Origin: Candidatus Iainarchaeum sp. | GTDB taxonomy: Archaea; Iainarchaeota; Iainarchaeia; Iainarchaeales; GCA-2688035 | NCBI GenBank assembly: GCA_028713935.1 | Contig: JAQTNI010000013.1 | Location: 1 to 29,402, forward strand | Direction of reading: 5' to 3' | DNA length: 29,402 nt | In this document: in pieces, positions 11,237-27,702 of the stretch | Layout: each line of letters begins with the position of its first letter | Position numbering within the stretch: the stretch's first letter is position 1 | Program-made: the position numbers and the translations under genes | The notes under the pieces: model-generated | The model's database searches: none | The model's input: only the letters and a program-made list of their open reading frames with translations | What the model was told of the DNA's origin: nothing

Positions 11237-12115
11237 ATGGTTTTCACACAGCTTTTTGTCAACGGTCTGATTGCCGGTGCAATATATGCGCTTGTTGCAG
11301 CAGGCTTCTCACTGATTTATTCCACTACAAAATTCGTGCACTTTGCGCATGGAGCAACAGTTGCAGCAAGCGCATACTTCTTGTACTTTCTTTTTTCAAT
11401 GCTCGAAATAAACTTCTGGATTGCAGTTCCGCTTGCAATTACTTTCGGGGCATTTTTCGGCCTGCTCTGCAACATACTTGTTTATGAAAAATTTGTTGAC
11501 AAAAAAGCAAGCAATGTGATTTTATTAATAGCAAGTTTTGGATTACTGATTCTCTTTGAATCAATTATTCTTCTCTTTTTCGGAGCAGATGTAAAAACAA
11601 TCGGATTCATAAAAATTTCAAAAGGAATTGAAATTGCAGGAGCAATAATTACTCCACTGCAAATCTTTATTGTAATAAGCTCTTTTGTTCTGCTTGCAGT
11701 ACTCTGGTTTTTCATGAAAAAAACCAAAATCGGAAAAGCAATGAGGGCAGTTTCAGACAACAAGACAATTGCAGAAACCCTGGGCATTAATTCAAAAAAA
11801 ATTTTTAACTGGTCCTTTTTAATAGGCTCGGCAATTGCTGGCATTGCGGGAATATTTGTTGCTTTGGAACAAAACCTTGAACCCACAATGGGAACAAATT
11901 TAATCATCAAAGGATTTACAGGGGCAGTAATCGGCGGGATTGGAAGCGTGCCAGGCGCAATCTTGGGAAGCTTTTTGCTTGGCTTTGCAGAAAACTTTGG
12001 AATATGGTTTCTCCCCTCCGGATACAAAGACGCAATAGCGTTTGTAATCTTATTGGTTTTCTTATTATTCAGGCCAACAGGAATACTGGGAATAAAAAGA
12101 GAGGTGCAAAAATGA
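11237..12115 (+). CDS. livH: branched-chain amino acid type ABC transporter permease, LivH family
   Basis: LivH-like N-terminus LFVNGLIAGAIYALVAAGFSLIYSTTKFVHFAHGA, with multiple TM segments. The ATG at 11237 is preferred over the TTG at 11225. The stop overlaps the next start in an ATGA at 12112-12115. Confidence 0.9.
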   Translation: MVFTQLFVNGLIAGAIYALVAAGFSLIYSTTKFVHFAHGATVAASAYFLYFLFSMLEINFWIAVPLAITFGAFFGLLCNILVYEKFVDKKASNVILLIASFGLLILFESIILLFFGADVKTIGFIKISKGIEIAGAIITPLQIFIVISSFVLLAVLWFFMKKTKIGKAMRAVSDNKTIAETLGINSKKIFNWSFLIGSAIAGIAGIFVALEQNLEPTMGTNLIIKGFTGAVIGGIGSVPGAILGSFLLGFAENFGIWFLPSGYKDAIAFVILLVFLLFRPTGILGIKREVQK

Positions 12116-13233
12116 ACAACAAACTAATTTTGGGAATTACAATTGCAGCAACAATTGCAATAATTTTCTTTGCAGGCTGCACCCAACAACAACCTGAAAA
12201 CGGGAAAGAAATCAAAATTGGTGCTTTGGTTCCTTTGACTGGAAACTATTCTGTTTTGGGCAATAGAATAAAGAACGGAATGGAACTTGCAAAACAAGAC
12301 CTTTTGGTTGAAAACCCAAATAAGCAGATTGAACTTGTTTTTGAAGATGCCTGCCAGCCGAAAGATGCAGTTACTGCTATACAAAAAATGATTGAAGTTG
12401 ACAAAATAAATCTTATTGGAGGCTCTTTCTGCCTTGTAGGCCTTGTTCCAATAATCCCCATTACTGAAGAAAAAAAAATGATTGTGTTCAACACAGCTGC
12501 AAATCCGGACAGCGTATTAAATCACCCTTATGTTTTCTCAACAAACAAGTCAATCAAATCAGATGCAGCGGGAATGGCAAATTTTGCATTGCAAAAATTG
12601 AATGCAAAAACAGCAGTCACTGTTTTTTACAACACGCCTTTAGGGCAGGATTTTAACAAGCATTTGACAGAGACTTTCATTGCAGGAAATGGAACTGTGC
12701 TTTCAACACAAATGGTTGAATTGAACGCAGTTGATTTTAGAACAGAATTAACAAAAATAAAAGAACAAAAACCAGACGTAATTTTTATTATACAATTGTC
12801 AAATTCTTTGGGCTTATTTTTGAAGCAAGCAAAAGAACTGGGAATTGAAGCAAAAATCATGAGCCATTCAGAAGCAGAAGACCCGAATGTCCTGGCAACA
12901 GCTGCTGAAGCAGCAGAAGGATTTATTATTTCCTCTTCAGAACCAAAAATAAAAACAAAAGAAATACTGGATTTCAAAGAAAAATATTCAAAAGCATTTG
13001 GAGCAGAACCAGACATTTTAGCAGCAACTGCATACGATTCCCTCAAACTGCAAGTAATTGCTTTTGAAAAATGCAATGGCTCATCAGATTGCATGGCCGA
13101 AGAATTTCACAAAACAAAAAACTATGCAGGAGCAAGCGGAAACATCACAATCAACGCAAACGGCTCATCAGACAAACCAACAAACTTCAAAATAGTAAAA
13201 AATGGCAAATTTGTTCCATACGAGGGAAACTGA
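12112..13233 (+). CDS. ABC transporter substrate-binding protein, Leu/Ile/Val-binding (type 1 PBP, Peripla_BP_6-like) family, lipobox; paralog 1
   Basis: Signal/lipobox IIFFAGCTQQ. Family motifs are IKIGALVPLTGN, EDACQPKDAV, GGSFCLVG, DFRTELTKIKEQKPDVIFI, LKQAKELGIEA, AAEGFI, GASGNITINANGS and IVKNGKFVPYE. The start is taken at the ATG at 12112; the ORF-track start at 12004 lies inside livH. Confidence 0.9.
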   Translation: MNNKLILGITIAATIAIIFFAGCTQQQPENGKEIKIGALVPLTGNYSVLGNRIKNGMELAKQDLLVENPNKQIELVFEDACQPKDAVTAIQKMIEVDKINLIGGSFCLVGLVPIIPITEEKKMIVFNTAANPDSVLNHPYVFSTNKSIKSDAAGMANFALQKLNAKTAVTVFYNTPLGQDFNKHLTETFIAGNGTVLSTQMVELNAVDFRTELTKIKEQKPDVIFIIQLSNSLGLFLKQAKELGIEAKIMSHSEAEDPNVLATAAEAAEGFIISSSEPKIKTKEILDFKEKYSKAFGAEPDILAATAYDSLKLQVIAFEKCNGSSDCMAEEFHKTKNYAGASGNITINANGSSDKPTNFKIVKNGKFVPYEGN

Positions 13234-14346
13234 ATGAGAACAAAAAATTTTTTGATAATTGTAATAATTGCATTGGCTTTGTTGTTTGCTGGTTGTACAG
13301 AGCAACCAAAAGAAACAAAGATTAAGATTGGTTTTATGGCGCCTCTTACGGGTTCTTTTGCTGATTGGGGCAGAAGCATTCAGGAAGGCATGCAATTGGC
13401 CCTTGAAGATACAAACCACAAGTTTAATGTTGATTATCAGGACGATGCTTGCGACCCAAAACAAGGCGTTACTATTATCAATAAGTTTCTTGGCACAGGC
13501 GAAATTAATTTGATTATTGGGCCCGGTTGCATTGAAAGTTTAAAAGCAATAGCTCCGATTGCAGAGCAAAATAATATTTTGCTTTTTTCTACCGGCCTTC
13601 TCGACAATGAAGTTTTTGAAAAACACAAAAACATAATCAACTTGGCTTCACAAATCTCTACAGAAGGAAGGTATTTAGCCAGTTATTTGGACTCCCAGAA
13701 AGTTAAAAGAGTTGCAATAGTTTACGGAACAAATCCCTTTGGAGTAGAACACAGCAAAACATTTCCAATATTTCTCAAAGACTACAATATAGAAGTTACT
13801 TCAATAGAAGGTTCTGCGCTGGATACAACTGACTTTAAGACAATTATTTTAAAAGTAATGAATACCAATCCAGAAGTAATTTTTATTCATCAGGGAGAAA
13901 AGCAAATTGGACTATTTGTTAAACAGCTAAGAGAACTCGGATACAGCACACAAGTTTATGGTTACTATGGAACTGAAGCGCAATCAGTAATAGAAACTGG
14001 GGGAGAAGCACTTGAAGGAATGCTTTACACTTACCCCGTAAACAGCGCAGAAAATTCTCCACAAAAAAAGGAATTTGAAAGAAGATATTCTGAAAAATTC
14101 GGCAAAGACAAGGTACCATCAGCAACATCTTTTTTTGTATATGACGGAATGATGCTTGTTGATAAAGCCATGGCTGTGTGCCAATCTCTCGACACGGAAT
14201 GCATAAAAGGATTTTTTGAAGGGAGAGACTACATAGGAATATCAGGAAATATGAAATTTGAAAAAAATGGCAGCATTACCCGTCCATTCGGCATAAAAAA
14301 AATTGAAAACGGAAAATTTGTATGGGTAACCAAAAAAATTGAATGA
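13234..14346 (+). CDS. ABC transporter substrate-binding protein, Liv-type family, lipobox; paralog 2
   Basis: Lipobox LLFAGCTEQP. Motifs are IKIGFMAPLTGS, QDDACDPKQGV, GPGCIESL, DFKTIILKVMNTNPEVIFI, VKQLRELGY, GISGNMKFEKNGS and IENGKFVWV. The ATG directly abuts the previous stop (13233/13234). Confidence 0.9.
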   Translation: MRTKNFLIIVIIALALLFAGCTEQPKETKIKIGFMAPLTGSFADWGRSIQEGMQLALEDTNHKFNVDYQDDACDPKQGVTIINKFLGTGEINLIIGPGCIESLKAIAPIAEQNNILLFSTGLLDNEVFEKHKNIINLASQISTEGRYLASYLDSQKVKRVAIVYGTNPFGVEHSKTFPIFLKDYNIEVTSIEGSALDTTDFKTIILKVMNTNPEVIFIHQGEKQIGLFVKQLRELGYSTQVYGYYGTEAQSVIETGGEALEGMLYTYPVNSAENSPQKKEFERRYSEKFGKDKVPSATSFFVYDGMMLVDKAMAVCQSLDTECIKGFFEGRDYIGISGNMKFEKNGSITRPFGIKKIENGKFVWVTKKIE

Positions 14347-15233
14347 AGAAGGCCACAGAAATGATTGAAGCTTATTTAATTCATTTGGCAATTTTGATTT
14401 GCATTTACCTTATTCTTGCGATTTCTTTGCAGATTGCAGTTGGTTTTTCAGGATTGCTGAATTTGGGGCACATTGCATTTTATGCTGTAGGGGCATATGC
14501 TTCAGCACTATTGGCGCTTGCTGGTTTTCCATTTTGGGTTTGCCTGCTTGCAGCAGGTTTTTTTGCAATGCTCTCAGGCTTTATAATCGCCTTGCCAACA
14601 AACAAACTTAAGGGAGATTATTTGGCCTTGGCAACAATGGGCTTCAGCTTTGTTGTTTATGCAATTGCACTCAATTGGACTGATTTAACAAGAGGCCCTT
14701 TAGGCCTGCCTGGAATTCCAAGGTCCGAAATTTTTGGATTTGTTTTTTCAGACAATCTTGCTTTTTTGATTCTTGCTCTTGCAATTGCTTTGATTACTTT
14801 TTTGGCATTAAAGAGAATCACTTCTTCACAGTTTGGAAAAGTGCTTGAAGCAACAAGGGACGACGAATTGGCTACAAGAGTTTTGGGAAAAAATTCTTTC
14901 AAAATGAAAGCCTTTGCATTAGGCATAAGTGCTTTTTTTGCTGGAATCGCAGGCAGTTTGTATGCAAGCTACATTACTTTTATTGACCCAAGCTCTTTCA
15001 CTATTCTTCAAATAATCCCAGTGCTTGCAATAGTAATTATTGGCGGGCTTGCTTCTTTCAGGGGAACAATAATTGCAACAATTATCATTGTTCTGCTCCC
15101 TGAGCCATTAAGATTTATCGGTTTTCCTTCAAGCATTGTTGGCCCAGCAAGGCAGATAATTTATGCATTATTGCTATTGCTGATTTTGCTGTTCAAGCCG
15201 AAAGGATTGTTTGGAAAAGTGGAATTGGAATAA
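14343..15233 (+). CDS. livM: branched-chain amino acid type ABC transporter permease, LivM family
   Basis: LivM-like motif LLNLGHIAFYAVGAYASALLAL, with multiple TM segments. It overlaps paralog 2 in an ATGA (14343-14346). Confidence 0.9.
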   Translation: MKKATEMIEAYLIHLAILICIYLILAISLQIAVGFSGLLNLGHIAFYAVGAYASALLALAGFPFWVCLLAAGFFAMLSGFIIALPTNKLKGDYLALATMGFSFVVYAIALNWTDLTRGPLGLPGIPRSEIFGFVFSDNLAFLILALAIALITFLALKRITSSQFGKVLEATRDDELATRVLGKNSFKMKAFALGISAFFAGIAGSLYASYITFIDPSSFTILQIIPVLAIVIIGGLASFRGTIIATIIIVLLPEPLRFIGFPSSIVGPARQIIYALLLLLILLFKPKGLFGKVELE

Positions 15234-15608
15234 TCACTTTATTTTAATTTGAATTTCCGCGTATTTTGGCAGTGCTATTGTTGCTTGTTTTGATTTTTTT
15301 GTTTCAACCAAGCCGAGTTTTTTCAAGTGTGCAATATCCCTGCTGACTGCTTCCTGATGCCTTCCGAGGCTTTTTGCTGTCTGGGAAACAGACTTTGGGT
15401 TTTTCTCGTCCTGGTTTCCAATCAAATAGCGCAGGACATTAATTCTTGCGGGGGATAAAAGTTCAGCCAGTTGCGCATAATTGTCCAAATAAAGCATATT
15501 TTTAGATTGTTTTATCTGGTCAAGCGGTTTTCCAGAGAACAGCTCGTCCAGATCCCTATCCATTTTTCTGCCAATCACAATAGTTAAAATATTTTCTTTT
15601 TTAGCCAT
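15234..15608 (-). CDS. winged-helix (MarR/ArsR-like) DNA-binding protein, 124 aa
   Basis: The segment LSPARINVLRYLIGNQDEKNPKSVSQTAKSLGRHQEAVSRDIAHLKKLGLVE is a wHTH followed by a short beta tail. The start is taken at the ATG at 15608 (MAKKENIL) because the longer ORF-track start at 15695 would overlap the upstream gene. Its stop codon directly abuts the livM stop. Confidence 0.7.
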   Translation of the reverse strand: MAKKENILTIVIGRKMDRDLDELFSGKPLDQIKQSKNMLYLDNYAQLAELLSPARINVLRYLIGNQDEKNPKSVSQTAKSLGRHQEAVSRDIAHLKKLGLVETKKSKQATIALPKYAEIQIKIK

Positions 15609-15640
15609 AAAAACCACAATAAAGTTGTATAACATAAATG

Positions 15641-15976
15641 TTATATGCTTATGTTTTGTCTTTTTGAAAGAAACCATTGCTTGTACTTTTGCCAATTAGT
15701 TATAATCTCTCTTTTAAATTCCTTGGCTGTTTCAGAAGAAATTTCACTGTTAAGGTTTTCCCCCGCATGCTTTGCCCTTTGATAATAGCGATGGGCATGC
15801 ACAACACCATGCGCACTATCAAACTTGATGACTTCGTGTTCTTTCCCGCCCAAGAGGCAAATTTGCGCTACGCAAAAGCAAATAACTTTTTTTGTTTCGG
15901 CATCAAAGTCAATCGTGACCAAAACATAATCCTTCGAACTCAGCCACTCTTTCTTTTTAAAGTGTTCCATAACCAT
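15641..15976 (-). CDS. small hypothetical protein (about 110 aa) with the His-rich motif FDSAHGVVHAHRYY; co-oriented partner of the wHTH gene
   Basis: The ORF sits 32 nt upstream of the wHTH gene on the same strand. The start is ambiguous (ATG at 15976 or 15970; the ORF track extends to 16000). The H-rich motif and the pairing with a small wHTH protein recall archaeal two-gene toxin/antitoxin-like modules (TumE/DUF6516-type). That assignment is from memory and weak. Confidence 0.5.
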   Translation of the reverse strand: MVMEHFKKKEWLSSKDYVLVTIDFDAETKKVICFCVAQICLLGGKEHEVIKFDSAHGVVHAHRYYQRAKHAGENLNSEISSETAKEFKREIITNWQKYKQWFLSKRQNISI

Positions 15977-16089
15977 AAAAAATCTGCAAAACAAAAGCAT
16001 TATAAAAAACGCTTTCAGTAAGGCAATTGCCGAAAAGAAGAAAACAAACTATTTTAAAACAAAAAGAGCAATAACTTAATTGAAAACAA

Positions 16090-17217
16090 ATGCAGGCTAA
16101 AACAAAAACAAGCATTATAATTTGCATTACGCTTTTTGCTTTGCTTTTTCTTCTGGGTTGTGCCCAGCAATCTACAAGCCAAAACCCAGTTGTTAAAGTG
16201 GGGGCTGTTTTGCCTTTAAGCGGTGTCAGAGCTGATGGCGGGGCATATGCAACCAAAGGATTGAACATGGCCTTGGATGAAATCAATAGTGATTCCCAAA
16301 GAAAATTTGCAATTGACTTGGTTTTTGAAGACAGCGAGTACAAGCCAGAAATTGCTGCAAGCGCAATGCAAAAATTAGTCGCAATAGATGGAATAAAATT
16401 TGTTATTGGAGAATGGGGCTCAAGCCCTACTCTTGCAATGGCACCAATTGCAGAAAAAAACAAAGTCATTATGATTACTCCCTGGGCGCAATCCGATGAA
16501 ATTACTACTGCAGGAGACCATATTTTTAGAACGCAAATTAACACAAAACAAGAAAGCGCTTTTTTTGCAGAATTCCTTTCCAAGAGAACAAAAGAGGTTC
16601 AAATTATTGGAATTAACACTGCCTATTTGACATCATACATTGCTGCTTTTCAGCCAGCATTCGAAAAACTGGGCTGCAAAATCGGTTCAATCGAAAAAGC
16701 TGGCGCAGAACAAACAGACATGAAAACAGAACTGACAAAAATAAAAGCTGCAAATCCAACAGACATCCTGATTGTTTCAGTGCCAAAACAAACAGGATTA
16801 ATATTAAAGCAAGCCAAAGAACTTGGGATTGAAGCCAATTTTTATGCCACTTCCCCGATTGAAGGAAGCGAATTATTGAAAGCAGCTGGCGATGCTGCAG
16901 AAGGCCTTATTTTTCCTTATCCTTACAATCCAAATGATACCAGAGAAATAGCAAAAACATACAGACAAAAATATTTGGCAAAATTTGGAGAGGAAAACGA
17001 AGCTGGCAGCGCCATCTGCTATGACACTTTGTACATTCTAAGCAATTGTTTTGAAAAAGTTGGCACTGAAACAGAAAAAGCCAAACAATGCCTCTATGAC
17101 ACACAAAATTTTGACGGGGCATCCGGAACAATTTCTTTCGACAAAAACGGAGACGTAACAAAAAACTTTATTATAAAAACAATCAAAAATGGAAAATTTG
17201 TTGTTTATGAAGAATAA
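16090..17217 (+). CDS. ABC transporter substrate-binding protein, Liv-type family, lipobox; paralog 3
   Basis: Lipobox LFLLGCAQQS. Motifs are VKVGAVLPLSG, EDSEYKPEIA (no Cys), GEWGSSPT (no Cys), DMKTELTKIKAANPTDILI, LKQAKELGIEA, AAEGLIF, GASGTISFDKNGD and IKNGKFVVYEE. Confidence 0.9.
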   Translation: MQAKTKTSIIICITLFALLFLLGCAQQSTSQNPVVKVGAVLPLSGVRADGGAYATKGLNMALDEINSDSQRKFAIDLVFEDSEYKPEIAASAMQKLVAIDGIKFVIGEWGSSPTLAMAPIAEKNKVIMITPWAQSDEITTAGDHIFRTQINTKQESAFFAEFLSKRTKEVQIIGINTAYLTSYIAAFQPAFEKLGCKIGSIEKAGAEQTDMKTELTKIKAANPTDILIVSVPKQTGLILKQAKELGIEANFYATSPIEGSELLKAAGDAAEGLIFPYPYNPNDTREIAKTYRQKYLAKFGEENEAGSAICYDTLYILSNCFEKVGTETEKAKQCLYDTQNFDGASGTISFDKNGDVTKNFIIKTIKNGKFVVYEE

Positions 17218-18334
17218 GATTTTTTTGGAGGTCGTAATTTTTGCAATTGCGGCAACAATTTTGCTTGCAGGCTGCACTAATCCAAACCAGCCAAAATCAG
17301 AGCCCATTATGATTGGAGCGCCTTTGTCTCTTACGGGGGCGACAGCTTCTTTTGGAGAAAGGGTCAGAAACAGCATGGAAATTGCAATCAAGGAAATCAA
17401 TTCGGAACAGGCCACTTTTGAGCTTATTCCAGTTTACGAGGACACCCAGAGCGAAACCGCAAAGGCAGTTGACTCTGCAAAAAAGCTTATTGAAATAGAC
17501 AAAGTAAACATCCTTTTTGGTGTTGTAAGGTCGAATGAAGTAATGGCAATTGCACCTTTGACCGAAGAAAAAAAGATTATCTTGTTCACCCCAATGGCGG
17601 GTTCTGATGCTATTTCTTCTGCCGGTGATTTTGTTTTCAGGAACAGGGAAACAGCTTCATTGCATGGAAAACAAATGGCAGAATTTCTTTTTCAAAAAGG
17701 CTTCAGAAACATTGCAATTGTACGGGCAGAATCGGAAAACAGTATTTCCTATGCAAAGTTTTTTTCCAAGCGCTTCGAAGAACTTGGAGGAAAAATAGTT
17801 TTCAATTCAGCTTACAATGAAAAGGAAACTGATTTCAGGACAATTATTTCCCAAATTATGGAAAAAAACCCAGAATCTATCTACCTTTCGCCTGCAGCGG
17901 ATAAAGACGGAGGGTTTTTTGTAAAGCAATTAGGGGAAATGGGTTTTTCGGGGCAAATTGCAAGTTCTATTTCAATAGAAGGCCCTGGTTTTATCAAAAA
18001 TGCCGGAGAGGCAGCCGAAAATACTTTGATTACTTACCCTACTCTGGATAAAACAAATCCCAAAGCAGAAGAATTCTCAAAAAAATACTTTTCTCAATAT
18101 GGTTCAGAACCTGATTTTGTGGCTGCGAACTCTTATGATGGAATAAGAATTCTGTTTAATGCAATTATTTTCTGCAATAGTGATGAGCCTGCGTGCATAA
18201 GAGACTATTTGTACAGTGTAAAAGATTACAACGGCATTGGAGGCAACACAACTTTTGATTCAAATGGAGACGTAATAAAACCCCTTACAATAGAAATCAT
18301 GCACAATGGAGAATTTGTCAAGTATGAAAAATGA
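17207..18334 (+). CDS. ABC transporter substrate-binding protein, Liv-type family, lipobox; paralog 4
   Basis: Lipobox ILLAGCTNPN. Motifs are IMIGAPLSLTG, EDTQSETAKA, DFRTIISQIMEKNPESIYL, VKQLGEMGF, GIGGNTTFDSNGD and MHNGEFVKYEK. The start is taken at the ATG at 17207 (MKNKIF), giving an 11-nt overlap with paralog 3. The alternative ATG at 17189 cannot be excluded. Confidence 0.85.
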   Translation: MKNKIFLEVVIFAIAATILLAGCTNPNQPKSEPIMIGAPLSLTGATASFGERVRNSMEIAIKEINSEQATFELIPVYEDTQSETAKAVDSAKKLIEIDKVNILFGVVRSNEVMAIAPLTEEKKIILFTPMAGSDAISSAGDFVFRNRETASLHGKQMAEFLFQKGFRNIAIVRAESENSISYAKFFSKRFEELGGKIVFNSAYNEKETDFRTIISQIMEKNPESIYLSPAADKDGGFFVKQLGEMGFSGQIASSISIEGPGFIKNAGEAAENTLITYPTLDKTNPKAEEFSKKYFSQYGSEPDFVAANSYDGIRILFNAIIFCNSDEPACIRDYLYSVKDYNGIGGNTTFDSNGDVIKPLTIEIMHNGEFVKYEK

Positions 18335-18336
18335 GT

Positions 18337-19317: not shown

Positions 19318-19322
19318 AAAAA

Positions 19323-19355
19323 CTATAAAAATAGTTAAAAATCTATTTTTTATAG
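19323..19355. promoter_or_regulatory. AT-rich inverted repeat in the divergent Lrp / binding-protein-5 promoter region (candidate operator overlapping TATA-like elements)
   Basis: CTATAAAAATAG (19323-19334) and CTATTTTTTATAG (19343-19355) are reverse complements except for one extra T, separated by 8 nt. The repeat lies 6-38 nt upstream of the Lrp start. A SD-like GGGGAG at 19411-19416 precedes the ATG at 19425. Confidence 0.4.
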
Positions 19356-19424
19356 AAAAAATATTTAAAAAATCTTATTAATGCCAAAAGCAGAGGCTTG
19401 TGTATTGTTCGGGGAGAAAAAACT

Positions 19425-21281: not shown

Positions 21282-21388
21282 AAAGAAAGGCTTGGATGCG
21301 AGTATTTTTAATTATATTTAACTGTTGTAAGGAAACTCACAACAAAAATATTTAGCGCCCTTTGAAAGAAGTTATTTAGGGGGCGCTT

Positions 21389-22537
21389 ATGGATTCAAGG
21401 TTTTCAGCAATAGCAGCAGCCATAATCATTATTGCAATTGTGGGTGTTATTGGCTTTGGCATTACTGGTTTTTTCAGTTTGCCTTCAAATGAAAATGCGA
21501 TAAAAATTGGGGCAATTTTGCCTCTAACCGGAAAGAATGCGCGTTATGGAGAACTTGAAAAAACAGGCTTGGAAATGGCTTTGCAGGAAATTAATGCAAA
21601 CAACGGGATTAATGGCAAAAAACTGGAGATTGTTTATGAGGATTCCCAAGCTGATGCAAAGCAGGCCATTGCAGCATGGAGAAACATAAGGCTTGATTCG
21701 GGCGTGCCATTGATTATTTCTGGCTTGAGCAATATTGGAATGGCTTTGAGCCCTGTTGCAAATTCTGACAAAACTGTTTTGTTTGCAACTGACTGCTCTG
21801 CCGCCCAATTTTCAAGCGCGAATGATTTCACTTTCAGGATTACTAACAGCAATGCAATTGAAGGCGAAGAAATGGCTGTTTTTTTGCTTTCAAAAAGCAT
21901 TGATTCAATTGCTGTTTTGAAAATCAACAATGATTACGGAGAAGGCTTGTTTCCTGCCTTTGAAAAAAGATTTTTGCTGGGAAACGGAAAAATCGAAATT
22001 TTCCAGGCTTATTCCCAGGAACAAAGGGATTTCAAGACAGAATTAAGCAGGATAAAAGAATCAAAAGCGCAGGCAATTTATTTTATTTCTTACGGGCCTG
22101 ACGCAGAAATAATAGTTAAGCAAATAAAAGAATTCGGGATTAATTTGCCTTTATTCGCTGCTGAACCAATTGAAAACAATGACTTCTTGAAAAATTCAGG
22201 GGAAGCTGCTGAAGGAATTATTTATTTGAAGGCAGCACTTGCAGGCATAAAAGGGGAAGAATTTGCTGAAAAAGCCAAAGCCCGAATAGGAAGGCATCCT
22301 GAAACTAATATTGCAAGAGCATATGATTTGCTGTACGTTGCCTCAAAAGCAATCCAAGAATGCGACTTAGCAAAGAACTTGAATTCTCAGTGCGTAAAAG
22401 AGCAGTTGTACAAAACAAGCTTTGAAGGAGTTCTCGGCAAAATAAGTTTTGACCAGAACGGAGACGTGCATATTCCTTATGCCTTGAAAATAATAAAGAA
22501 TGGGCAATTTGTGCTTTATGAAAACAACCAGAGTTGA
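21389..22537 (+). CDS. ABC transporter substrate-binding protein, Liv-type family, N-terminal TM anchor without lipobox Cys; paralog 6
   Basis: N-terminus AIAAAIIIIAIVGVIGFGITGFF has no Cys. Motifs are IKIGAILPLTGK, EDSQADAKQA, FRITNSN, DFKTELSRIKESKAQAIYF, VKQIKEFGI, AAEGIIY, GKISFDQNGD and IKNGQFVLYE. A SD-like AGGGGG lies at 21378-21383. Confidence 0.9.
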   Translation: MDSRFSAIAAAIIIIAIVGVIGFGITGFFSLPSNENAIKIGAILPLTGKNARYGELEKTGLEMALQEINANNGINGKKLEIVYEDSQADAKQAIAAWRNIRLDSGVPLIISGLSNIGMALSPVANSDKTVLFATDCSAAQFSSANDFTFRITNSNAIEGEEMAVFLLSKSIDSIAVLKINNDYGEGLFPAFEKRFLLGNGKIEIFQAYSQEQRDFKTELSRIKESKAQAIYFISYGPDAEIIVKQIKEFGINLPLFAAEPIENNDFLKNSGEAAEGIIYLKAALAGIKGEEFAEKAKARIGRHPETNIARAYDLLYVASKAIQECDLAKNLNSQCVKEQLYKTSFEGVLGKISFDQNGDVHIPYALKIIKNGQFVLYENNQS

Positions 22538-22577
22538 CTGAAAATGCTTTTTAACCTGTTTTTGCAATATTAATTGC

Positions 22578-23315
22578 ATGCTTTCAATTCAAAACCTTCA
22601 CAAGCGCTTTGGCGGAGTAAAAGCAGTTGACGACTGCAGTTTTCAGGTGAAAGAAGGAACAATTACTGCTTTAATTGGCCCTAATGGTTCTGGAAAAACA
22701 ACTGTTTTCAATTTAGTTTGTGGAGTTTTGCAGCCTGATTCGGGAAAAATTGTTTTTTCTGGAAAGCAGATTTCAAAATTAAAGCCAGAAACAATTTCAA
22801 ATTTAGGAATTTCAAGACTGTTCCAGCAGGCAAGGCTATTCGGAAACATTACTGTAAGGGAGAATCTGCTTTTGGCTTTTGACAACGAAGACACAAAATT
22901 CTGGAAAAATTTTTTTGGAATGAATCCTGTTGCAAAGCAAAAAGAAGAAAAAGTAAGCGAGGTTCTGAAAACAATTGGAATGGAAAAATTTGAAAACAAG
23001 CAGGCAAAAGAACTAAGTTATGGGCAAAAAAGGCTTGTGGAACTTGCAAGGGCAATGATTAACCCGCACAAATTGCTGATGCTTGACGAGCCAGTTGCAG
23101 GAGTAAACCCAAAACTGCGTAGAGAAATAGCAGAACTGCTTTTGAAACTCAAAAAACAGGGAGAAACAGTTTTTTTAATTGAACACGACATGAATTTTAC
23201 GCTTGGAGTAGCGGATAACGTAGTTGTAATGGACGAAGGAAAAGTAATTGCAGAAGGCACCCCGCAGAAAATAAAGGATAATACAAGGGTTTTGGAAGCG
23301 TATCTGGGGGAATAA
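22578..23315 (+). CDS. livG: branched-chain amino acid type ABC transporter ATP-binding protein, LivG family
   Basis: Walker A GPNGSGKTT, signature LSYGQKRLVELARAM, Walker B LLMLDEP and the LivG-type C-terminus VLEAYLGE. Confidence 0.9.
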   Translation: MLSIQNLHKRFGGVKAVDDCSFQVKEGTITALIGPNGSGKTTVFNLVCGVLQPDSGKIVFSGKQISKLKPETISNLGISRLFQQARLFGNITVRENLLLAFDNEDTKFWKNFFGMNPVAKQKEEKVSEVLKTIGMEKFENKQAKELSYGQKRLVELARAMINPHKLLMLDEPVAGVNPKLRREIAELLLKLKKQGETVFLIEHDMNFTLGVADNVVVMDEGKVIAEGTPQKIKDNTRVLEAYLGE

Positions 23316-23368
23316 AAAAAGAACATCAACAAAATGGAATAAGCCGGTGCTAATTGGCAGTGATAAGG

Positions 23369-23399
23369 TTTAAATATTTATACTAATTACTAATTAGTA
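23369..23399 (+). promoter_or_regulatory. TATA-like TTTAAATA (23369-23376) followed by a perfect 19-bp palindrome TACTAATTA-C-TAATTAGTA (23381-23399) ending 2 nt before the ATG
   Basis: Read directly from the sequence. The palindrome has 9+1+9 symmetry with no mismatch. The geometry fits a leaderless promoter with an operator over the transcription start. Confidence 0.45.
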
Positions 23400-23401
23400 C
23401 T

Positions 23402-24661
23402 ATGGATAAGGAGCTTTTAAGGCAGATTGTGGCCCAGCAGAAGAATGGGTTGTTTGGGAACAAAACCATAAAAAGAGAGCTTTTGGATGAAATTTCAGGC
23501 AGTTTCAAAGACAACCGCATAATAATTCTTACAGGAATAAGGCGCTGCGGCAAATCCACTTTGCTAACGCAGTTAATGGAGACAAAAAAAAAGTATTGCT
23601 ATGTAAATTTTGAGGATGAACGGTTTATTGATTTCAAAGCACAGGATTTTGAACAATTAAACGAAGTTTTGATTGAAATTTATGGAAACCCGGAAACATA
23701 TTTTTTTGATGAAGTACAAAACATTGAAAAGTTTGAAACATTTGTAAGAAGGCTCCAAGACCAGGGGAAAAAAGTCATTATTACTGGTTCTAATGCTTCT
23801 CTTTTGAGCAAAGAGCTTGGCACAAGGCTTACTGGAAGATACAAGGCTTTTGGAGTTTACCCTTTTTCATTTTCAGAGTTTTTGGCTTTCAAAAAAATTG
23901 TGCCTGAAAAAAACTGGTTTTTTTTGGCAGAAAAAAAAGTGAAACTTGCAAGCTTGTTCAGCGAATACCTCCTTGAAGGCGGCCTGCCGGAATATTTGAA
24001 ATACAAAGACACTACCTATGTGAAAACTGTCTTTGAAAACATTTTGTACAGGGACATTATTGCACGCTACTCAATAAGAAGGCAGAAACTGGTTAAAGAA
24101 CTTGTGAATATTCTTGCAACAAATGTTTCTTTGCTTTTTACCTATAATGCATTGAAAAAATCGCTTGGATTGTCAAACGCAATTACAGTAAAGGAATACG
24201 TGTCTTATCTGGAAAATTCTTTTTTGTTTTTTGAAATGCAAAAATTTGATTTTTCAGTCAGGAAACAGCTGAATGCCCCAAAAAAAATTTTTTTGGCAGA
24301 TTCCGCCTTTCACAAAATCAGCGGGGCAAATTTTTCTCCCAACAAAGGCAGATTACTGGAAAACCTTGTTTTTATAGAATTAAAAAGAAGGGGCGAGGAA
24401 ACATTTTATTATGCGGGAAACAAAGAATGCGATTTTTTGGTTAAAAATGGAACCAAAATTAAAGAAGCCATGCAAGTCTGCTATGTTTTAAACAAAGAAA
24501 ACAGGGAAAGAGAGCTTAACGGGTTAATTGAAGCAATGCAAAAATTCAAGCTAAAACAAGGCATTATACTGACATTTGAACAAGAAGAAGAAATAAAAAT
24601 AAAAAACAAAAAAATAAAAATAGTTCCCACATTCAAATGGCTATTGGAAAACAAATGGTAA
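23402..24661 (+). CDS. AAA-type ATPase of the archaeal/bacterial DUF4143 (COG1373-like) family, 419 aa
   Basis: Walker A GIRRCGKSTLL, Walker B YFFDEVQN, and a C-terminal region with a nuclease-like fold pattern (ECDFLV). This architecture is typical of stand-alone ATP-binding proteins annotated as ATPase (AAA+ superfamily) with DUF4143. Confidence 0.8.
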   Translation: MDKELLRQIVAQQKNGLFGNKTIKRELLDEISGSFKDNRIIILTGIRRCGKSTLLTQLMETKKKYCYVNFEDERFIDFKAQDFEQLNEVLIEIYGNPETYFFDEVQNIEKFETFVRRLQDQGKKVIITGSNASLLSKELGTRLTGRYKAFGVYPFSFSEFLAFKKIVPEKNWFFLAEKKVKLASLFSEYLLEGGLPEYLKYKDTTYVKTVFENILYRDIIARYSIRRQKLVKELVNILATNVSLLFTYNALKKSLGLSNAITVKEYVSYLENSFLFFEMQKFDFSVRKQLNAPKKIFLADSAFHKISGANFSPNKGRLLENLVFIELKRRGEETFYYAGNKECDFLVKNGTKIKEAMQVCYVLNKENRERELNGLIEAMQKFKLKQGIILTFEQEEEIKIKNKKIKIVPTFKWLLENKW

Positions 24662-24663
24662 AA

Positions 24664-25740
24664 ATGAAAGCAAAAATTACCTTGGGAATTTGCATTATTG
24701 GGATAATTGCTGCAATATTCATTGCAGGCTGTGCCCAGCCAACACAGGAAGAAACAATAAAAATAGGGGTTAGTGAAACTTTAACTGGAGCTAATGCGGA
24801 CATAGGGAACGATGTTGCCAATGGGGTAAAAGATGCTTTTTCTGGAATTAATGCAGAGCAAATTTTTGGCAAAAAAATAGAGTTATTAACAGAGGACAAT
24901 ACAGGGGATGTAAAAAAGGCGGTTTCTGATTATCAGGCTTTTAAGATGCAAAATGTGAGAATTGTTTTTTCTGCTTTCAGCAGCATAATAGGCGCATTAA
25001 ATCCCCTGTCCAAACAGGACAAAATAATATTAATGTATAATGCCGTAACACCTTCCTTTGCAGAGGAAAATGAATTCGCTTTCAAAGTGTATGCGAACGC
25101 ACCGCAAGAAGCTGAAACAATTTTGGCCGCAATAAAAAACAAGAATGAAAGAATTGGAATCGCGTACGTTAATAATCCAACAACTGCCATTTTTTACGAA
25201 AAATTTTCCAAAGAGCTCACAGAGATTGCCCCTTACTCTTTTGACATAAAAGAAACTGATTTCCGAACAATAATATTAAAGCTCAAAGAAGAGAAAATTA
25301 ATACTCTGATACTGCTTGGGTATCCAAGCCAGATACTAAATTTTGTAAAACAGGCTGTTGAATCAGAATACTACCCTGAAAATATTTTTGTAAACAGCGA
25401 TAGCACAGTTAAAGAAGTAACTGACAAAATAGGAGATTCCCTTTCTGGCACAAAAATAAAATATTTTACAGTAGGATATGGATTGGAAAACCAGAACTAT
25501 ATTTTTGGTTATGATTTGGCAAAGACACTGATTGAAGGAATGAAAAAGTGCCATGAACTTGGAAAAATTCCGGATGACGCAGATTGCCTCAAAGAAGAAC
25601 TCAAAAAAATTAAAATAGAGGGAAAAAGCGGCGTTATTGACATGAACAACTCAAGAGTTGCTGTTGTCACATCAAAGCTTTTTTCAGTGCAGAACAAAAA
25701 ACTTGTTGAAGTGCAAGGCGATAAAAATGCTTTCAATTAA
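24664..25740 (+). CDS. ABC transporter substrate-binding protein, Liv-type family, lipobox; paralog 7 (most divergent)
   Basis: Lipobox IFIAGCAQPT. It keeps IKIGVSETLTGA, EDNTGDVKKA and DFRTIILKLKEEKINTLIL but lacks the usual F(D/E).NGD and IKNG.FV.YE C-terminal motifs. The ATG at 24664 sits 2 nt after the ATPase stop; the ATGs at 24637 and 24655 would overlap the ATPase gene. Confidence 0.75.
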   Translation: MKAKITLGICIIGIIAAIFIAGCAQPTQEETIKIGVSETLTGANADIGNDVANGVKDAFSGINAEQIFGKKIELLTEDNTGDVKKAVSDYQAFKMQNVRIVFSAFSSIIGALNPLSKQDKIILMYNAVTPSFAEENEFAFKVYANAPQEAETILAAIKNKNERIGIAYVNNPTTAIFYEKFSKELTEIAPYSFDIKETDFRTIILKLKEEKINTLILLGYPSQILNFVKQAVESEYYPENIFVNSDSTVKEVTDKIGDSLSGTKIKYFTVGYGLENQNYIFGYDLAKTLIEGMKKCHELGKIPDDADCLKEELKKIKIEGKSGVIDMNNSRVAVVTSKLFSVQNKKLVEVQGDKNAFN

Positions 25741-25815
25741 AAACCTGCATTCTGCTAAATCCTGAATGAGAGGATGGAATAAAAAAACTTCGTTCCAACT
25801 TTTTCTAGTGTTTTT

Positions 25816-26940
25816 ATGAAATTAAAAATTGCAATTTTTGCATTGTTGATTTTTTTAATTATTTTTTTATTTGGATGCACTCAACCTGAAAACTCCCAGA
25901 AGATTAAGATTGGTTTTATAGGGCCCTTGAGCGGAGGCCCTGCTTTGTGGGGGCAGGGTTCTTTGAATATGATTAATCTTGCTGTTGGGGAAATAAATTC
26001 TCAAGGCGGGATAAATGGAAAAACCCTGGAACTAATTGCAGAAGACGGAAAATGCAGTTCAGAGGGTGCTGTTTCTGCTGCACAAAAATTGATTGATATT
26101 GACGGAGTAAAGTTTATTTTTGGCGGCCATTGTTCCCCGGAAACAGTTGCAATTGTCCCAATTATTGACAAAGCAAAAGTATTCCTATTAGCAGGGGTTA
26201 CAAGCACTGATGATGCAGTTTCGGGAAGCAAATATGCTTTCAGAACAAGCCCGCCGACTCTGGATCAGGCAAAAATAACTTCCGAAACAGCTTACTATAA
26301 ATATGTCTACAAAAATATTGCTTTGATTACTGAAGAAGCTTCTTATTCCAAAAGTTTCAGTGAGGACATCAAAAAAACTTTTCAAGGAACAATTGTTGAA
26401 GAATTCTCTTATAATCCAGGGGAAATTGATTTCAAAAGCGGGTTATTGAAAATAAAAGAGAAGAATCCTGATGCGATTTGGATTTCTCCCCAAGATCCAA
26501 ATGAAGCAGTGCTTTTGTTAAAGCAAATGAAAGAACTTGACCTGCTAAATATTCCTTTGTTTGGCAATACTGTTTTTGTAAGCAAACAAGTGTATGAACA
26601 ATCTGAGAAGCTCTTGCCCGAAACGGCTTTTGCAATAACTCTCTTTGCAGATCCAAGCGCACCAAATTTGCTTGAAGTCCAACAAAAGTATAAGGAAAAA
26701 TACGGGGCAGATGTTCCTTATAATTTGTATTATGTTTCTGCAGCATATGACGGAGTTTATATGTTAAAGAACGCTTTAATGCAGTGTGGTGAAGATGTTG
26801 ATTGCGTGCAAAAATACTTTGAAAACATTAAAGATTATCAGGGAGTTGCGGGAACATTCACTTTCAAGCAAAACGGAGACCCTATTTTTAACAGTTGGAA
26901 GGAAATGAAAATAAAAGACGGAACTACAATACTGGACTGA
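25816..26940 (+). CDS. ABC transporter substrate-binding protein, Liv-type family, lipobox; paralog 8
   Basis: Lipobox IIFLFGCTQP. Motifs are IKIGFIGPLSGG, EDGKCSSEGA, GGHCSPET, FRTSPP, DFKSGLLKIKEKNPDAIWI, LKQMKELDL, GVAGTFTFKQNGD and IKDGTTIL. Confidence 0.9.
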   Translation: MKLKIAIFALLIFLIIFLFGCTQPENSQKIKIGFIGPLSGGPALWGQGSLNMINLAVGEINSQGGINGKTLELIAEDGKCSSEGAVSAAQKLIDIDGVKFIFGGHCSPETVAIVPIIDKAKVFLLAGVTSTDDAVSGSKYAFRTSPPTLDQAKITSETAYYKYVYKNIALITEEASYSKSFSEDIKKTFQGTIVEEFSYNPGEIDFKSGLLKIKEKNPDAIWISPQDPNEAVLLLKQMKELDLLNIPLFGNTVFVSKQVYEQSEKLLPETAFAITLFADPSAPNLLEVQQKYKEKYGADVPYNLYYVSAAYDGVYMLKNALMQCGEDVDCVQKYFENIKDYQGVAGTFTFKQNGDPIFNSWKEMKIKDGTTILD

Positions 26941-26997
26941 TTCACAGGGCAGCAATTTTATTAATCCCTTCTTGTTTTAATATACTAAGGTTTTTTA

Positions 26998-27702
26998 ATG
27001 CTTGAAATCAAAGGATTAAAAGCGGGCTATAATGGCACAGAAATTTTACATGGCATTGATTTGAAAGTATTCCCTGGGGAGATTGCTGCTATTATCGGCC
27101 CAAATGGTTCAGGAAAAAGCACTTTGCTGAAAAGCATTTTTAATTTGTGCAATGTTTTTTCAGGAAAAATTTTTTTCAAGGAAAAAGACATTACAAGGCT
27201 GCCAACGCACGAACTGATTTTTGAGGGAATTAGTTTTGTTCCGCAGGGAAGGCAGATTTTTTCCGATCTGACAGTAAAAGAAAACCTTGAAATGGGCGCA
27301 TTCATAATGCGGGACAAAGAGCTTGTTGAAAGAAACCTGCAGAGTGTTTTCAAAAAATTCCCTTTCCTGAAAGAAAAGCAAAACCATTATGCCTTTTCCC
27401 TTTCAGGCGGGCAGCAGCAAATGCTTGCAATTGCACGCGCATTAATGCAGAATTCAGAATTGCTTTTGTTAGACGAACCATCTCTGGGCTTGTCGCCAAA
27501 AATGATGAAAGAGGTTTTTGAAAAAATAGTGGAAATAAACAAAGAAGGAATCGGAATAATAATTGTTGAGCAGAACGCAAGGCAGGCAATGAAAATTGCA
27601 AAAAAAACCTTTGTCCTGGAAGAAGGCAAAATTGCACTGCAAGGCGGAAAAGAAATCGCAAACAACAAAAAAATAAAAGACATTTATTTCGGCGGAACAT
27701 AA
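26998..27702 (+). CDS. livF: branched-chain amino acid type ABC transporter ATP-binding protein, LivF family
   Basis: Walker A GPNGSGKST, signature LSGGQQQMLAIARALM, Walker B LLLLDEPS and the LivF-type C-terminus IKDIYFGG. Confidence 0.9.
   Translation: MLEIKGLKAGYNGTEILHGIDLKVFPGEIAAIIGPNGSGKSTLLKSIFNLCNVFSGKIFFKEKDITRLPTHELIFEGISFVPQGRQIFSDLTVKENLEMGAFIMRDKELVERNLQSVFKKFPFLKEKQNHYAFSLSGGQQQMLAIARALMQNSELLLLDEPSLGLSPKMMKEVFEKIVEINKEGIGIIIVEQNARQAMKIAKKTFVLEEGKIALQGGKEIANNKKIKDIYFGGT

Follow-up and report, generated by a model that had tools for sequence, protein, structure and literature searches.

Eight receptor genes interleaved with a single HAAT-family translocon: a probable modular importer in a DPANN contig

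The stretch of DNA analyzed here (the 'window') is the entire 29,402-nucleotide contig JAQTNI010000013.1 of a metagenome-assembled genome (MAG; GCA_028713935.1) labelled as the DPANN archaeon Candidatus Iainarchaeum. A listing of open reading frames (ORFs) and Pfam scans over the window place one LivH, one LivM, one LivG and one LivF gene at positions 11237-27702, together with eight genes for substrate-binding proteins (SBPs) of the Peripla_BP_6 family. Interspersed among these genes are a TrmB regulator, a double Lrp/AsnC regulator, a winged helix-turn-helix (wHTH) gene of the HVO_A0114 family accompanied by a DUF7718 gene, and an ATPase of the AAA_14 type (Table 1). The single set of translocon genes, the eight interleaved SBPs and their order had been read from the letters in an earlier note on this DNA, and are borne out by Pfam. 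It seems likely that the locus encodes a modular multi-receptor importer of the HAAT family, in which one LivHMGF translocon serves eight exchangeable, individually regulated and membrane-tethered receptor cassettes.

In such an importer, the four translocon genes would form a fixed scaffold between which receptor genes are inserted, deleted and replaced by recombination. Receptors would move singly, in pairs, or as divergent TrmB-SBP or Lrp-SBP units that bring their own operator, and the translocon lineage itself would have passed laterally between DPANN archaea and bacteria of the Candidate Phyla Radiation (CPR). The eight receptors presumably compete for one docking site on LivHM and bring in different small molecules, such that several uptake specificities would be gained for the cost of one pump. 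SBP5 through Lrp and SBP6 through TrmB might each be induced by a signal of its own. LivG, LivF and LivM, which follow SBP6, SBP8 and SBP2, respectively, may share a transcript with whichever of the receptors is expressed.

One translocon and eight divergent receptors

The translocon shows the composition expected for the HAAT family (TC 3.A.1.4) of ATP-binding cassette (ABC) importers, as evident by two BPD_transp_2 (PF02653) permeases, two ATPases and Peripla_BP_6 receptors. LivH and LivM can be aligned locally over 91 residues with only 29% identity, a weak similarity that one would expect of an H/M pair. LivG and LivF are 32% identical, and the LivG-type C-terminal extension (PF12399) is found in the former only. 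Pfam reveals no second BPD_transp_2 permease or Liv-type ATPase anywhere in the 29,402 nucleotides of the window. All four proteins score below the NCBIfam equivalog cut-offs (LivH 128 versus 379, LivM 204 versus 366, LivG 244 versus 362 and LivF 215 versus 441), and the same is true when the UrtBCDE set is used (UrtB 156 versus 250; UrtE 222 versus 286). Therefore, the safe name for this system is 'HAAT-family importer' rather than 'branched-chain amino acid transporter'.

Several of the genes are tightly packed. The ATGA overlaps that the earlier note had pointed out are present at 12112-12115 (LivH stop and SBP1 start) and at 14343-14346 (SBP2 stop and an alternative LivM start), as is the junction of 0 nucleotides between SBP1 and SBP2 (TGA|ATG at 13233/13234), and the H-SBP1-SBP2-M group is thus tightly coupled. 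In addition, the start of SBP4 overlaps the end of SBP3 by 11 nucleotides, or by 29 if SBP4 begins at 17189. The LivH ORF opens with a TTG at 11225, and the ATG at 11237 yields a protein of 292 amino acids, as in its homologues. A homology search with LivM returned hundreds of contigs that are 75-93% identical. Because the LivM homologues are 290 amino acids long, its real start may be at 14361, 14 nucleotides after SBP2, rather than within the ATGA overlap.

Pairwise identities among the eight SBPs range from 21% to 34%. This agrees with the motif-level similarity described for them previously, and the motifs quoted at that time are visible in the alignment. Six of the proteins (SBP1, 2, 3, 4, 7 and 8) carry at residues 18-24 a match to the lipobox pattern [LVI][ASTVI][GAS]C that closes a signal peptide, and are therefore predicted to be lipid-anchored. 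SBP5 and SBP6 instead carry an N-terminal transmembrane (TM) anchor without Cys. These anchor regions (19425-19520 and 21389-21490, respectively) end in a common G(F/I)xGFFxL motif. The only two receptors of the eight without a lipobox are also those that adjoin a regulator gene and have a LivJ-like pocket.

Closer relatives of the receptors reside in other genomes (loci are designated here by L numbers). SBP1 belongs to an orthogroup of approximately 100 proteins with 40-60% identity from Pacearchaeota and Patescibacteria, and the SBP7 orthogroup (49-59%) likewise includes Patescibacteria and Pacearchaeota, with the L087 member paired with a TrmB. SBP2 has a 54% orthologue in a Woesearchaeota locus (L010) and SBP8 a 66% orthologue in a Nanoarchaeota locus (L027), in each case in the corresponding slot directly ahead of LivM or LivF. 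The best orthologue of SBP3 (44%) is from a Patescibacteria locus, and SBP4 has a 48% orthologue in a Parcubacteria locus (L060). SBP5 is matched at 69-70% by a protein encoded beside the Lrp gene of L001, and SBP6 by proteins from Iainarchaeum AR10 (L024; 59%) and Buchananbacteria (53%). For each window SBP that was traced, the outside orthologues (44-69%) are more similar than its neighbors in the window (21-34%), and thus the paralogues must be old. The earlier view of them as eight old duplicates is therefore correct with regard to ancient, non-redundant paralogy, but the set was not made by duplication in place.

The same diversity is evident across the clade. When 109 SBPs from 39 clade loci are grouped at 45% identity, 79 clusters result, 60 of which are singletons. 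Two SBPs from the same locus fall together in just 2 of the 79 clusters, and 8 of the 79 contain members from both domains. Positional orthology, in which a fixed SBP type would follow LivH or precede LivG or LivF, was considered but is not supported, as slot occupants differ even in close relatives. The possibility that SBP7 is a decaying gene was likewise rejected. This protein aligns only to positions 1-236 of the Pfam model, yet it is full length, belongs to a conserved orthogroup and has invariant pocket residues.

To compare the putative binding pockets, ligand-contact positions of LivJ were mapped onto the SBPs in three alignments, using the E. coli LivJ sequence that is identical to 1Z15_A. 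Ser79, Thr102, Tyr202 and Glu226 of LivJ are the residues that we take to hold the alpha-amino and alpha-carboxylate groups of the ligand. At the positions equivalent to Y18/S79/T102/Y150/Y202/E226, the LivJ signature appears to be retained both by SBP5 (Y/S/T/Y/Y/D), whose matches in the PDB include LivJ/LivK at an E value of 1e-26, and by SBP6 (Y/S/S/Y/Y/E). Equivalents of S79, Y202 and D226 are present in 14 of 14 members of the SBP7 orthogroup. In these alignments, two or more of S79, Y202 and E226 are missing from each of SBP1, 2, 3, 4 and 8, and all three are kept in only 18 of the 109 clade SBPs. Members of the SBP1 orthogroup carry L/I/F18, L/V/A/I79, N102 (74 of 84), F/L150, L/F202 and Y/S226, which points to a hydrophobic pocket without an ammonium-binding acid.

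An AlphaFold model of SBP1 (pLDDT 95) is predicted to adopt a closed two-lobe solute-binding fold, with TM-scores of 0.84-0.89 to 3TD9 and 4EVQ. The model fits amino-acid binders and 4-hydroxybenzoate binders equally well, and proteins with matching folds also bind keto-acids, urea, pyroglutamate and fatty acids, which is consistent with ligand screens of Rhodopseudomonas palustris proteins (PMC3223731). From the pocket residues, amino-acid binders would be limited to SBP5, SBP6 and probably SBP7, and the remaining receptors probably bind other small carboxylates or amides. The earlier note had named essentially identical pockets as an outcome that would speak against its proposal; the comparison reveals that pocket positions differ.

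Receptor turnover, probable lateral transfer and candidate operators

The closest relatives of the window are three Iainarchaeia MAGs (L001/L007, L008 and L024). In L001, LivH is 95%, LivM 93% and LivG 92% identical to its window counterpart, and four DNA blocks are collinear at 81-90% identity (11225-12243, 14360-16043, 18326-20559 and 22585-24678). Between these blocks the two loci differ by whole receptor segments. The SBP3 and SBP4 segment (16044-18325; 2.28 kb) is found only in the window, and its flanks are directly adjacent in L001. The TrmB and SBP6 segment (20560-22584; 2.03 kb) is replaced by 57 nucleotides. The slot between LivH and LivM holds 2.1 kb in the window (the rest of SBP1 plus SBP2), versus one unrelated SBP in L001. 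The first 26 residues of SBP1 and of this L001 occupant, corresponding to signal peptide and lipobox, are nearly identical, whereas the mature proteins are only approximately 25% identical. The third relative, L008, has yet other SBPs in the same slot.

Synonymous divergence (dS) between the window and L001 is also highly uneven, with values of 0.09 for Lrp, 0.32 for AAA_14, 0.38 for LivG, 0.57 for LivM, 0.61 for LivH, 0.85 for the wHTH gene, 1.39 for DUF7718 and 1.43 for SBP5. Near position 19360, between the Lrp and SBP5 genes, nucleotide identity to L001 changes abruptly from 94-98% on the left to 58-78% on the right. This variation from gene to gene and the sharp breakpoint indicate that the locus is a recombination mosaic. 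The ratio of nonsynonymous to synonymous divergence (dN/dS) for SBP5 and its L001 orthologue is 0.15, and thus its divergence reflects allele replacement under purifying selection rather than decay. The breakpoints look like products of homologous recombination within conserved genes and leaders. Judged from these alignments, the locus is built by the gain, loss and replacement of cassettes via recombination and lateral transfer, and not by in-place duplication.

An integron-like or integrase-driven array was considered and rejected, since a tyrosine recombinase gene is found beside L087 only, with no homologue in the window or in 86 other loci. This gene (12983-14071, minus strand) directly follows LivF on a 764-kb Pacearchaeota contig.

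Neighborhoods of LivM relatives and 80 GTDB species genomes were annotated by phmmer searches with the window proteins. A tight clade emerges in which identity to the window is 55-93% for LivM, 55-95% for LivH, 48-92% for LivG and 56-76% for LivF, compared to 25-47% for the translocon proteins of ordinary bacteria and Methanothrix. With L001 set aside, the clade values are 55-87% for LivH, in CPR and DPANN loci alike, and 48-71% for LivG. Its archaeal members are Iainarchaeota, Woese-, Pace- and Nanoarchaeota, and its bacterial members are Pace-, Falkow-, Kuenen-, Buchanan-, Staskawicz- and Vogelbacteria. At least one SBP gene lies inside the translocon span in 9 of 14 complete clade loci versus 2 of 34 ordinary Liv loci, and many further clade loci that run off their contigs also have translocon genes separated by SBPs. 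Ordinary loci (LivM below 45%; Methanothrix, Bacteroidota, Firmicutes and Proteobacteria) are compact, with the order S-H-M-G-F and an HMGF segment of approximately 3.3 kb (S denotes an SBP gene). Representative clade orders are H-S-M-S-G-S-F (L005), S-H-S-M-G-S-S-S-S-S-F (L002), H-S-S-M-G-trmB-S-S-S-S-trmB-S-S-F (L028, Buchananbacteria) and H-M-(trmB-S)x4-G-S (L024, Iainarchaeum AR10), and in no clade locus is there a second H or M gene.

The layout had been called unusual in the earlier note. This holds relative to ordinary Liv loci, but within a clade that spans CPR and DPANN it is the rule, and L028 likewise has eight SBPs. The most basal clade members (L035, L041 and L038; 55-60%) retain a compact H-M-G-F order, and so interleaving looks derived within the clade. 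An H-S-S-S-M-S-G-S-S-S-F order is also found in L048 (JAVBPW010000004.1, labelled Alphaproteobacteria), whose LivM is 44% identical and groups with those of Uhr- and Taylorbacteria. Interleaving is thus not confined to the tight clade.

Marker genes were used to check the domain of three loci, which have LivM proteins with 72-79% identity to the window protein. L003 is bacterial, as evident by bS16, bL33, TrmD and RNase III on its 155-kb contig. L002 is also bacterial, since map and infA of a secY-adk-map cluster enclose it, with a PF01176 match that corresponds to bacterial IF-1. L021 is archaeal by its aRF1 marker, and it shares a phosphoenolpyruvate (PEP) synthase neighbor with the archaeal-labelled L018, L030 and L024. 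In a bootstrapped neighbor-joining tree of LivM based on Kimura distances, the clade has 99-100% support, and archaeal- and bacterial-labelled sequences occur on both sides of a split with 100% support. From this topology we infer at least two inter-domain transfers, a minimum that is given because inner nodes are weak.

Some additional features of these relatives were observed. In the CPR bacterium that carries L002 (GCA_030616605.1, JAUWWY010000001.1), a Liv locus with seven SBPs, along with a few other genes, occupies 6847-18254 between map and infA. The PEP synthase/PPDK genes beside Liv loci are located at 1-2397 in L018, 4556-7045 in L021, 2240-4702 in L030 and 1070-9161 in L024. L024 has several genes that encode only a PEP-utilizers mobile domain or only PPDK_N, and these may be split paralogues. 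Four loci labelled Gammaproteobacteria or Nitrospinaceae (L022, L031, L032 and L043) carry LivM genes of the tight-clade or CPR type, and probably represent mis-binned CPR or DPANN contigs.

Regulator genes form part of many of the putative cassettes. Across the survey, a divergent SBP partner accompanies 47 of 60 TrmB genes and 5 of the 6 double Lrp genes, and there are clade loci with up to five or more TrmB genes, each with its own receptor. The best homologue of the window TrmB (68%) is in L024, where it is paired with the 59% orthologue of SBP6. Because the two genes are orthologous as a pair and are jointly absent as a clean indel relative to L001, regulator and receptor travel together. 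The window TrmB has 238 amino acids versus approximately 340 for classical TrmB, and scores 25-40 bits with NCBIfam TrmB equivalogs whose cut-offs are 500-650. Its N-terminal 90-150 residues give weak matches to TrmB and TrmBL2 structures (3QPH and 5BQT).

A palindrome that may serve as the TrmB operator (TGTTGT-N10-ACAACA; Table 1) has its sole exact match in the window between the TrmB and SBP6 genes. In intergenic regions between TrmB and SBP genes, TGTTGT-N9-11-ACAACA occurs exactly in 5 of 45 cases and with no more than one mismatch in 11 of 45. Nine of these 11 sites are located 29-41 nucleotides (up to 62) upstream of the TrmB start. The 726 kb of clade loci contain just eight exact sites, and shuffled controls have none. 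The palindrome is enriched about 60-fold, and is found in loci with archaeal and with bacterial labels. In the window, TGTTGTAAGGAAACTCACAACA appears to lie between back-to-back TATA-like boxes at ~21312-21321 (for trmB) and 21345-21354 (for SBP6). Such an arrangement is what one would predict if a repressor were to block both promoters.

The tandem Lrp gene is 96% identical to its L001 copy. NCBIfam AsnC and LysM models match both halves of the protein below their cut-offs. For example, positions 4-127 of the 153 in the AsnC model align with Lrp residues 175-301, including the RAM region, at 76 bits compared to a cut-off of 227. An AT-rich inverted repeat in the intergenic region between Lrp and SBP5 is a candidate Lrp site (Table 1), and the breakpoint near 19360 is immediately to its right. 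The proposal in the earlier note that regulators and receptors form units is therefore well founded for the conserved Lrp-SBP5 and TrmB-SBP6 pairs, but the HVO_A0114 and DUF7718 genes are divergent to SBP3 in the window only. Moreover, the 'wHTH pair' of that note consists of one HVO_A0114 wHTH gene and a DUF7718 protein that is not a helix-turn-helix protein.

Scans for sigma-70 promoters and intrinsic terminators were uninformative, with counts at or below shuffle expectation. A sigma-70 consensus is not expected to apply to an archaeon. The total number of terminator-like sites in 11000-28400 is not above chance, and the top-scoring one is listed in Table 1. Control by a riboswitch or another known RNA was rejected, as no Rfam match at the gathering threshold and no tRNAs were found in the window.

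Table 1. Features of the locus and its upstream border (coordinates in the window)
Feature	Coordinates	Strand	Evidence and remarks
MNT-type nucleotidyltransferase and HEPN	10244-10795 and 10792-11217	+	Pfam Polbeta/NTP_transf_2, HEPN; PADLOC PDC-M05A/B
LivH-type permease (HAAT transmembrane domain 1)	11237-12115	+	BPD_transp_2, E 4e-43
SBP1, type I binding protein	12112-13233	+	Peripla_BP_6, E 4e-49; lipobox FAGC
SBP2	13234-14346	+	Peripla_BP_6, E 1e-48; lipobox FAGC
LivM-type permease (transmembrane domain 2)	14361-15233	+	BPD_transp_2, E 2e-49; alternative start 14343
HVO_A0114-family winged-helix protein (ArsR-like wHTH)	15234-15608	-	PF25212, E 4e-14
DUF7718 protein	15641-15970	-	PF24839, E 1.5e-12; co-directional with wHTH gene
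SBP3	16090-17217	+	Peripla_BP_6, E 5e-50; lipobox LLGC
SBP4	17207-18334	+	Peripla_BP_6, E 4e-46; lipobox LAGC
Tandem Lrp/AsnC-type regulator	18337-19317	-	Two HTH_AsnC-type domains; divergent from SBP5
AT-rich inverted repeat CTATAAAAA-N15-TTTTTATAG, candidate Lrp site	19323-19355	.	Arms 100% complementary
SBP5	19425-20564	+	Peripla_BP_6, E 1e-54; N-terminal TM anchor
TrmB-family regulator	20565-21281	-	PF01978, E 1.2e-15, residues 6-72; divergent from SBP6
Palindrome TGTTGTAAGGAAACTCACAACA, candidate TrmB operator	21323-21344	.	TGTTGT-N10-ACAACA
SBP6	21389-22537	+	Peripla_BP_6, E 2e-44; N-terminal TM anchor
LivG-type ATPase (nucleotide-binding domain 1)	22578-23315	+	ABC_tran + BCA_ABC_TP_C; 40 nt past SBP6
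AAA_14/DUF4143 ATPase	23402-24661	+	Pfam; PADLOC PDC-S01, E 3e-115
SBP7, most divergent receptor	24664-25740	+	Peripla_BP_6, E 5e-31; lipobox IAGC
SBP8	25816-26940	+	Peripla_BP_6, E 3e-53; lipobox LFGC; 57 nt ahead of LivF
LivF-type ATPase (nucleotide-binding domain 2)	26998-27702	+	ABC_tran, E 2e-33; last gene of the locus
Hairpin AGACTTGCGAAGCAAGTCT then T7, terminator-like locus end	27787-27815	+	Top-scoring terminator-like site in 11000-28400

Passenger genes and competing explanations

Other genes within and beside the locus have no evident tie to transport, as we observed no evidence that the AAA_14, MNT/HEPN or HVO_A0114/DUF7718 genes serve the transporter. The MNT/HEPN pair is situated just upstream of the locus, and similar pairs occur inside the Liv loci of L003, L010, L019 and L029; those of L003 are between translocon genes at 12267-12976 and 13953-14802. 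By its domains, this pair looks like a passenger toxin-antitoxin or defence-candidate module. The match of the AAA_14/DUF4143 protein to PADLOC PDC-S01 spans residues 21-417 and is a candidate defence annotation only. Its gene has a TATA-like box of its own and also follows LivG in L001, where the protein is 95% identical. The HVO_A0114 protein is 80% and the DUF7718 protein 52% identical to copies at the same place in L001, which there adjoin LivM and abut the Lrp gene, with no link to an SBP gene. These two genes are possibly a passenger module as well. The presence of passengers implies that gaps between translocon genes accept any accessory DNA.

Several other features flank the locus. Just upstream, a gene at 2752-10143 (plus strand) encodes a predicted surface protein of 2463 amino acids with CarboxypepD_reg, Big_1 and bMG3/SpaA-like Ig repeats, and its GC content is 0.41-0.45 versus 0.34-0.40 in the rest of the contig, where segments vary only slightly. 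Four ORFs of 110-395 amino acids (48-1235, 1685-2332, 27879-28268 and 28312-28644) have no Pfam match, and the latter two also have no PADLOC match. An element of ~70 nucleotides (...GCAATTTGCTTTGCAAATTGTGGTTCGCTTCGCTCAC...) occurs once in the window, at 29311-29380, and is 90% identical to L001 sequences at 4848-4919 and 118-64 (minus strand). It has no Rfam or tRNA match, and possibly represents a small repeat that is dispersed in this lineage.

Certain observations weigh against a modular, multi-receptor importer. The count of one translocon covers this contig, and other HAAT translocons that pair with some of these SBPs may exist elsewhere in the genome. We infer that LivHMGF accepts all eight SBPs, that these bind different ligands and are controlled by TrmB and Lrp, and likewise how transcription is arranged. 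The pocket alignments were made at 20-30% identity, with columns that shift by one to two residues (position 226 of SBP7 and positions 100-102 of SBP1), and the fold search with SBP1 cannot discriminate between amino-acid and aromatic-acid ligands. With regard to regulation, Pfam detects neither a C-terminal sugar-binding effector domain in TrmB (no match past residue 72) nor the RAM effector domain (PF01037) in Lrp at E values up to 5, and the palindrome is present in just ~1/4 of TrmB-SBP intergenic regions. Furthermore, if LivG were transcribed only with the TrmB-controlled SBP6, the entire pump would hang on one inducer, which argues for additional, unmapped promoters. As for lateral transfer, the window itself contains no domain marker gene, marker genes confirm the domain of only L002, L003 and L021, the other loci being labelled as in their MAG records, and support within the LivM tree is weak at inner nodes.

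The same mosaic could arise if the region were an insertion or recombination hotspot rather than a functional unit. The translocon genes would then act as homologous anchors, with only one to three SBPs feeding the translocon and the others serving different transporters, acting as sensors, or heading for loss. Unrelated AAA_14/PDC-S01, HVO_A0114/DUF7718 and MNT/HEPN genes in the intergenic slots, MNT/HEPN pairs within other clade loci, the mosaic dS values with sharp breakpoints, fast turnover even at 93% LivM identity, and the 60 singletons among 79 SBP clusters are all in keeping with this explanation. However, none of the eight SBP ORFs is truncated or disrupted and each has export and anchor signals, SBP1, SBP2 and SBP4 overlap their neighbors or are translationally coupled to them, SBP5 is under purifying selection, and orthogroups retain pocket residues of their own (N102 for SBP1 and S79/Y202/D226 for SBP7). 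Each locus also has one HAAT translocon, and we know of no function for Peripla_BP_6-type SBPs apart from such a translocon. We therefore consider the hotspot explanation unlikely. In this respect, the multi-receptor hub suggested by the earlier note stands with its single translocon, many receptors and differing pockets, but the AAA_14 and HVO_A0114/DUF7718 modules that it had included look like passengers.

Receptor diversity might instead be driven mainly by surface conflict or host recognition (viruses, hosts or attachment), with transport as a secondary role. The SBPs are predicted to be surface-tethered, their extreme diversity is set against a near-frozen translocon, whole mature domains are swapped behind a constant leader, defence-candidate genes are co-located, and the 2463-amino-acid surface protein is encoded next door. 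We judge this to be improbable, because the sole measurable orthologous pair (SBP5) has a dN/dS of 0.15 and a saturated dS of 1.43, which indicates allele replacement and not positive selection. In addition, TrmB and Lrp are regulators of ligand-responsive type whose association with a conserved operator is typical of nutrient control, the modeled SBP1 fold closely resembles small-molecule binders, and pocket residues are conserved within orthogroups. Far less credible still is an assembly or binning artefact in which pieces of several Liv loci, contributed by populations that occur together, were joined. The contig was assembled from a metagenome, its GC content varies slightly between segments, and some insertions are specific to the window relative to L001, but four blocks are collinear with L001, which is an independent assembly from another site. 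The ends of the inserted segments coincide precisely with gene boundaries, where ORFs are intact and start and stop codons overlap, and there is one copy of each translocon gene where a chimera would tend to duplicate. The comparison of neighborhoods in related genomes proposed by the earlier note also reveals interleaved loci in over 20 assemblies of independent origin, some of them on contigs of 155-788 kb, and the arrangement is therefore not an assembly chimera.

Significance and comparison with known systems

On a larger scale, CPR and DPANN organisms may share one 'plug-and-play' platform spread by repeated inter-domain transfer, with near-frozen translocon anchors and a very large, freely exchanged pool of cassettes, many with TrmB and the TGTTGT-N10-ACAACA palindrome, and with most receptors specific for compounds other than amino acids. 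We offer this proposal tentatively, as one that has a real prospect of being correct but should not yet be relied upon. If true, the receptor set of a genome would record the host or community metabolites used by an ultra-small cell. CPR and DPANN make up a large part of microbial diversity, have few biosynthetic pathways and are almost all uncultured, and which compounds they acquire, and by what means, is one of the central questions about them. The earlier suggestion of a scavenging or host-dependent cell fits the DPANN label of the host. If one conserved pump with exchangeable, self-regulated receptors is the solution common to these organisms, the annotation 'branched-chain amino acid transporter' conceals a much wider substrate range, receptor cassettes offer a tractable route to the metabolic dependencies that must be understood for cultivation, and the locus provides a clear example, open to dating, of gene flow that recurs between the two domains in shared habitats. 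The TrmB-SBP units, with their short palindromic candidate operator, would represent compact and portable pairs of sensor and receptor.

In a partial literature search, Liv importers of DPANN and CPR came up only in passing, and neither the interleaved architecture nor TrmB-SBP cassettes were found described. The sharing of one ABC translocon by several SBPs, and TrmB repressors in ABC clusters, are established. What appears to be new is the interleaved scaffold-plus-cassette architecture as the rule of a clade, the repeated TrmB-SBP units with a common palindrome, the extreme turnover of receptors compared to a near-frozen translocon, and the sharing of the system between CPR and DPANN.

The nearest known relatives are LivJ/LivK-LivHMGF of E. 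coli and BraDEFG with BraC/BraC3 of Rhizobium leguminosarum, which belong to the same HAAT family. These systems likewise have two BPD_transp_2 permeases, two ATPases of which one has the LivG tail, Peripla_BP_6 proteins and more than one receptor per translocon. However, they have two closely related receptors, or a distant orphan, with a contiguous HMGF set, whereas the present locus has eight receptors of 21-34% identity between the translocon genes. Its LivM has 290 rather than ~425 amino acids, its receptors are predicted to be membrane-tethered, and its proteins remain below the equivalog cut-offs.

Another parallel is the Opp system of Borrelia burgdorferi, which has five OppA receptors. 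In both cases a reduced genome would widen its range of substrates by adding receptors rather than pumps, with some receptors having their own promoters. Opp belongs to the peptide ABC family, though, its receptors are not interleaved, it has no regulator-receptor cassettes, and there is no evidence of a laterally shared scaffold that crosses domains. Several or orphan SBPs on one ABC transporter are the subject of a review by Thomas 2010 ('Homes for the orphans'; cited in PMC3223731). Ligand screens reveal that the expanded COG0683/Peripla_BP_6 proteins of Rhodopseudomonas palustris bind aromatic acids, fatty acids and dicarboxylates (PMC3223731). The receptor fold is common to both, and the SBP1 model resembles those binders (4EVQ, 4EY3 and 4F8J) as closely as it does amino-acid binders. 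In R. palustris, however, which is free-living and has a large genome, the receptors are distributed over many separate loci that have their own translocon or depend on a distant one.

A further precedent concerns the regulators. Thermococcus litoralis and Pyrococcus furiosus have a TrmB-controlled ABC cluster for trehalose and maltose that is known for lateral transfer. As in that cluster, a TrmB-family gene lies inside the importer locus and a palindrome is present in the promoter region, which is a candidate site here and is bound by TrmB there. The Thermococcales system is of the sugar CUT1 type with one receptor, and its TrmB has the C-terminal sugar-binding domain that is undetected in the window protein. 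In contrast to this arrangement, TrmB genes of the present clade are repeated within a locus, each with a receptor of its own.

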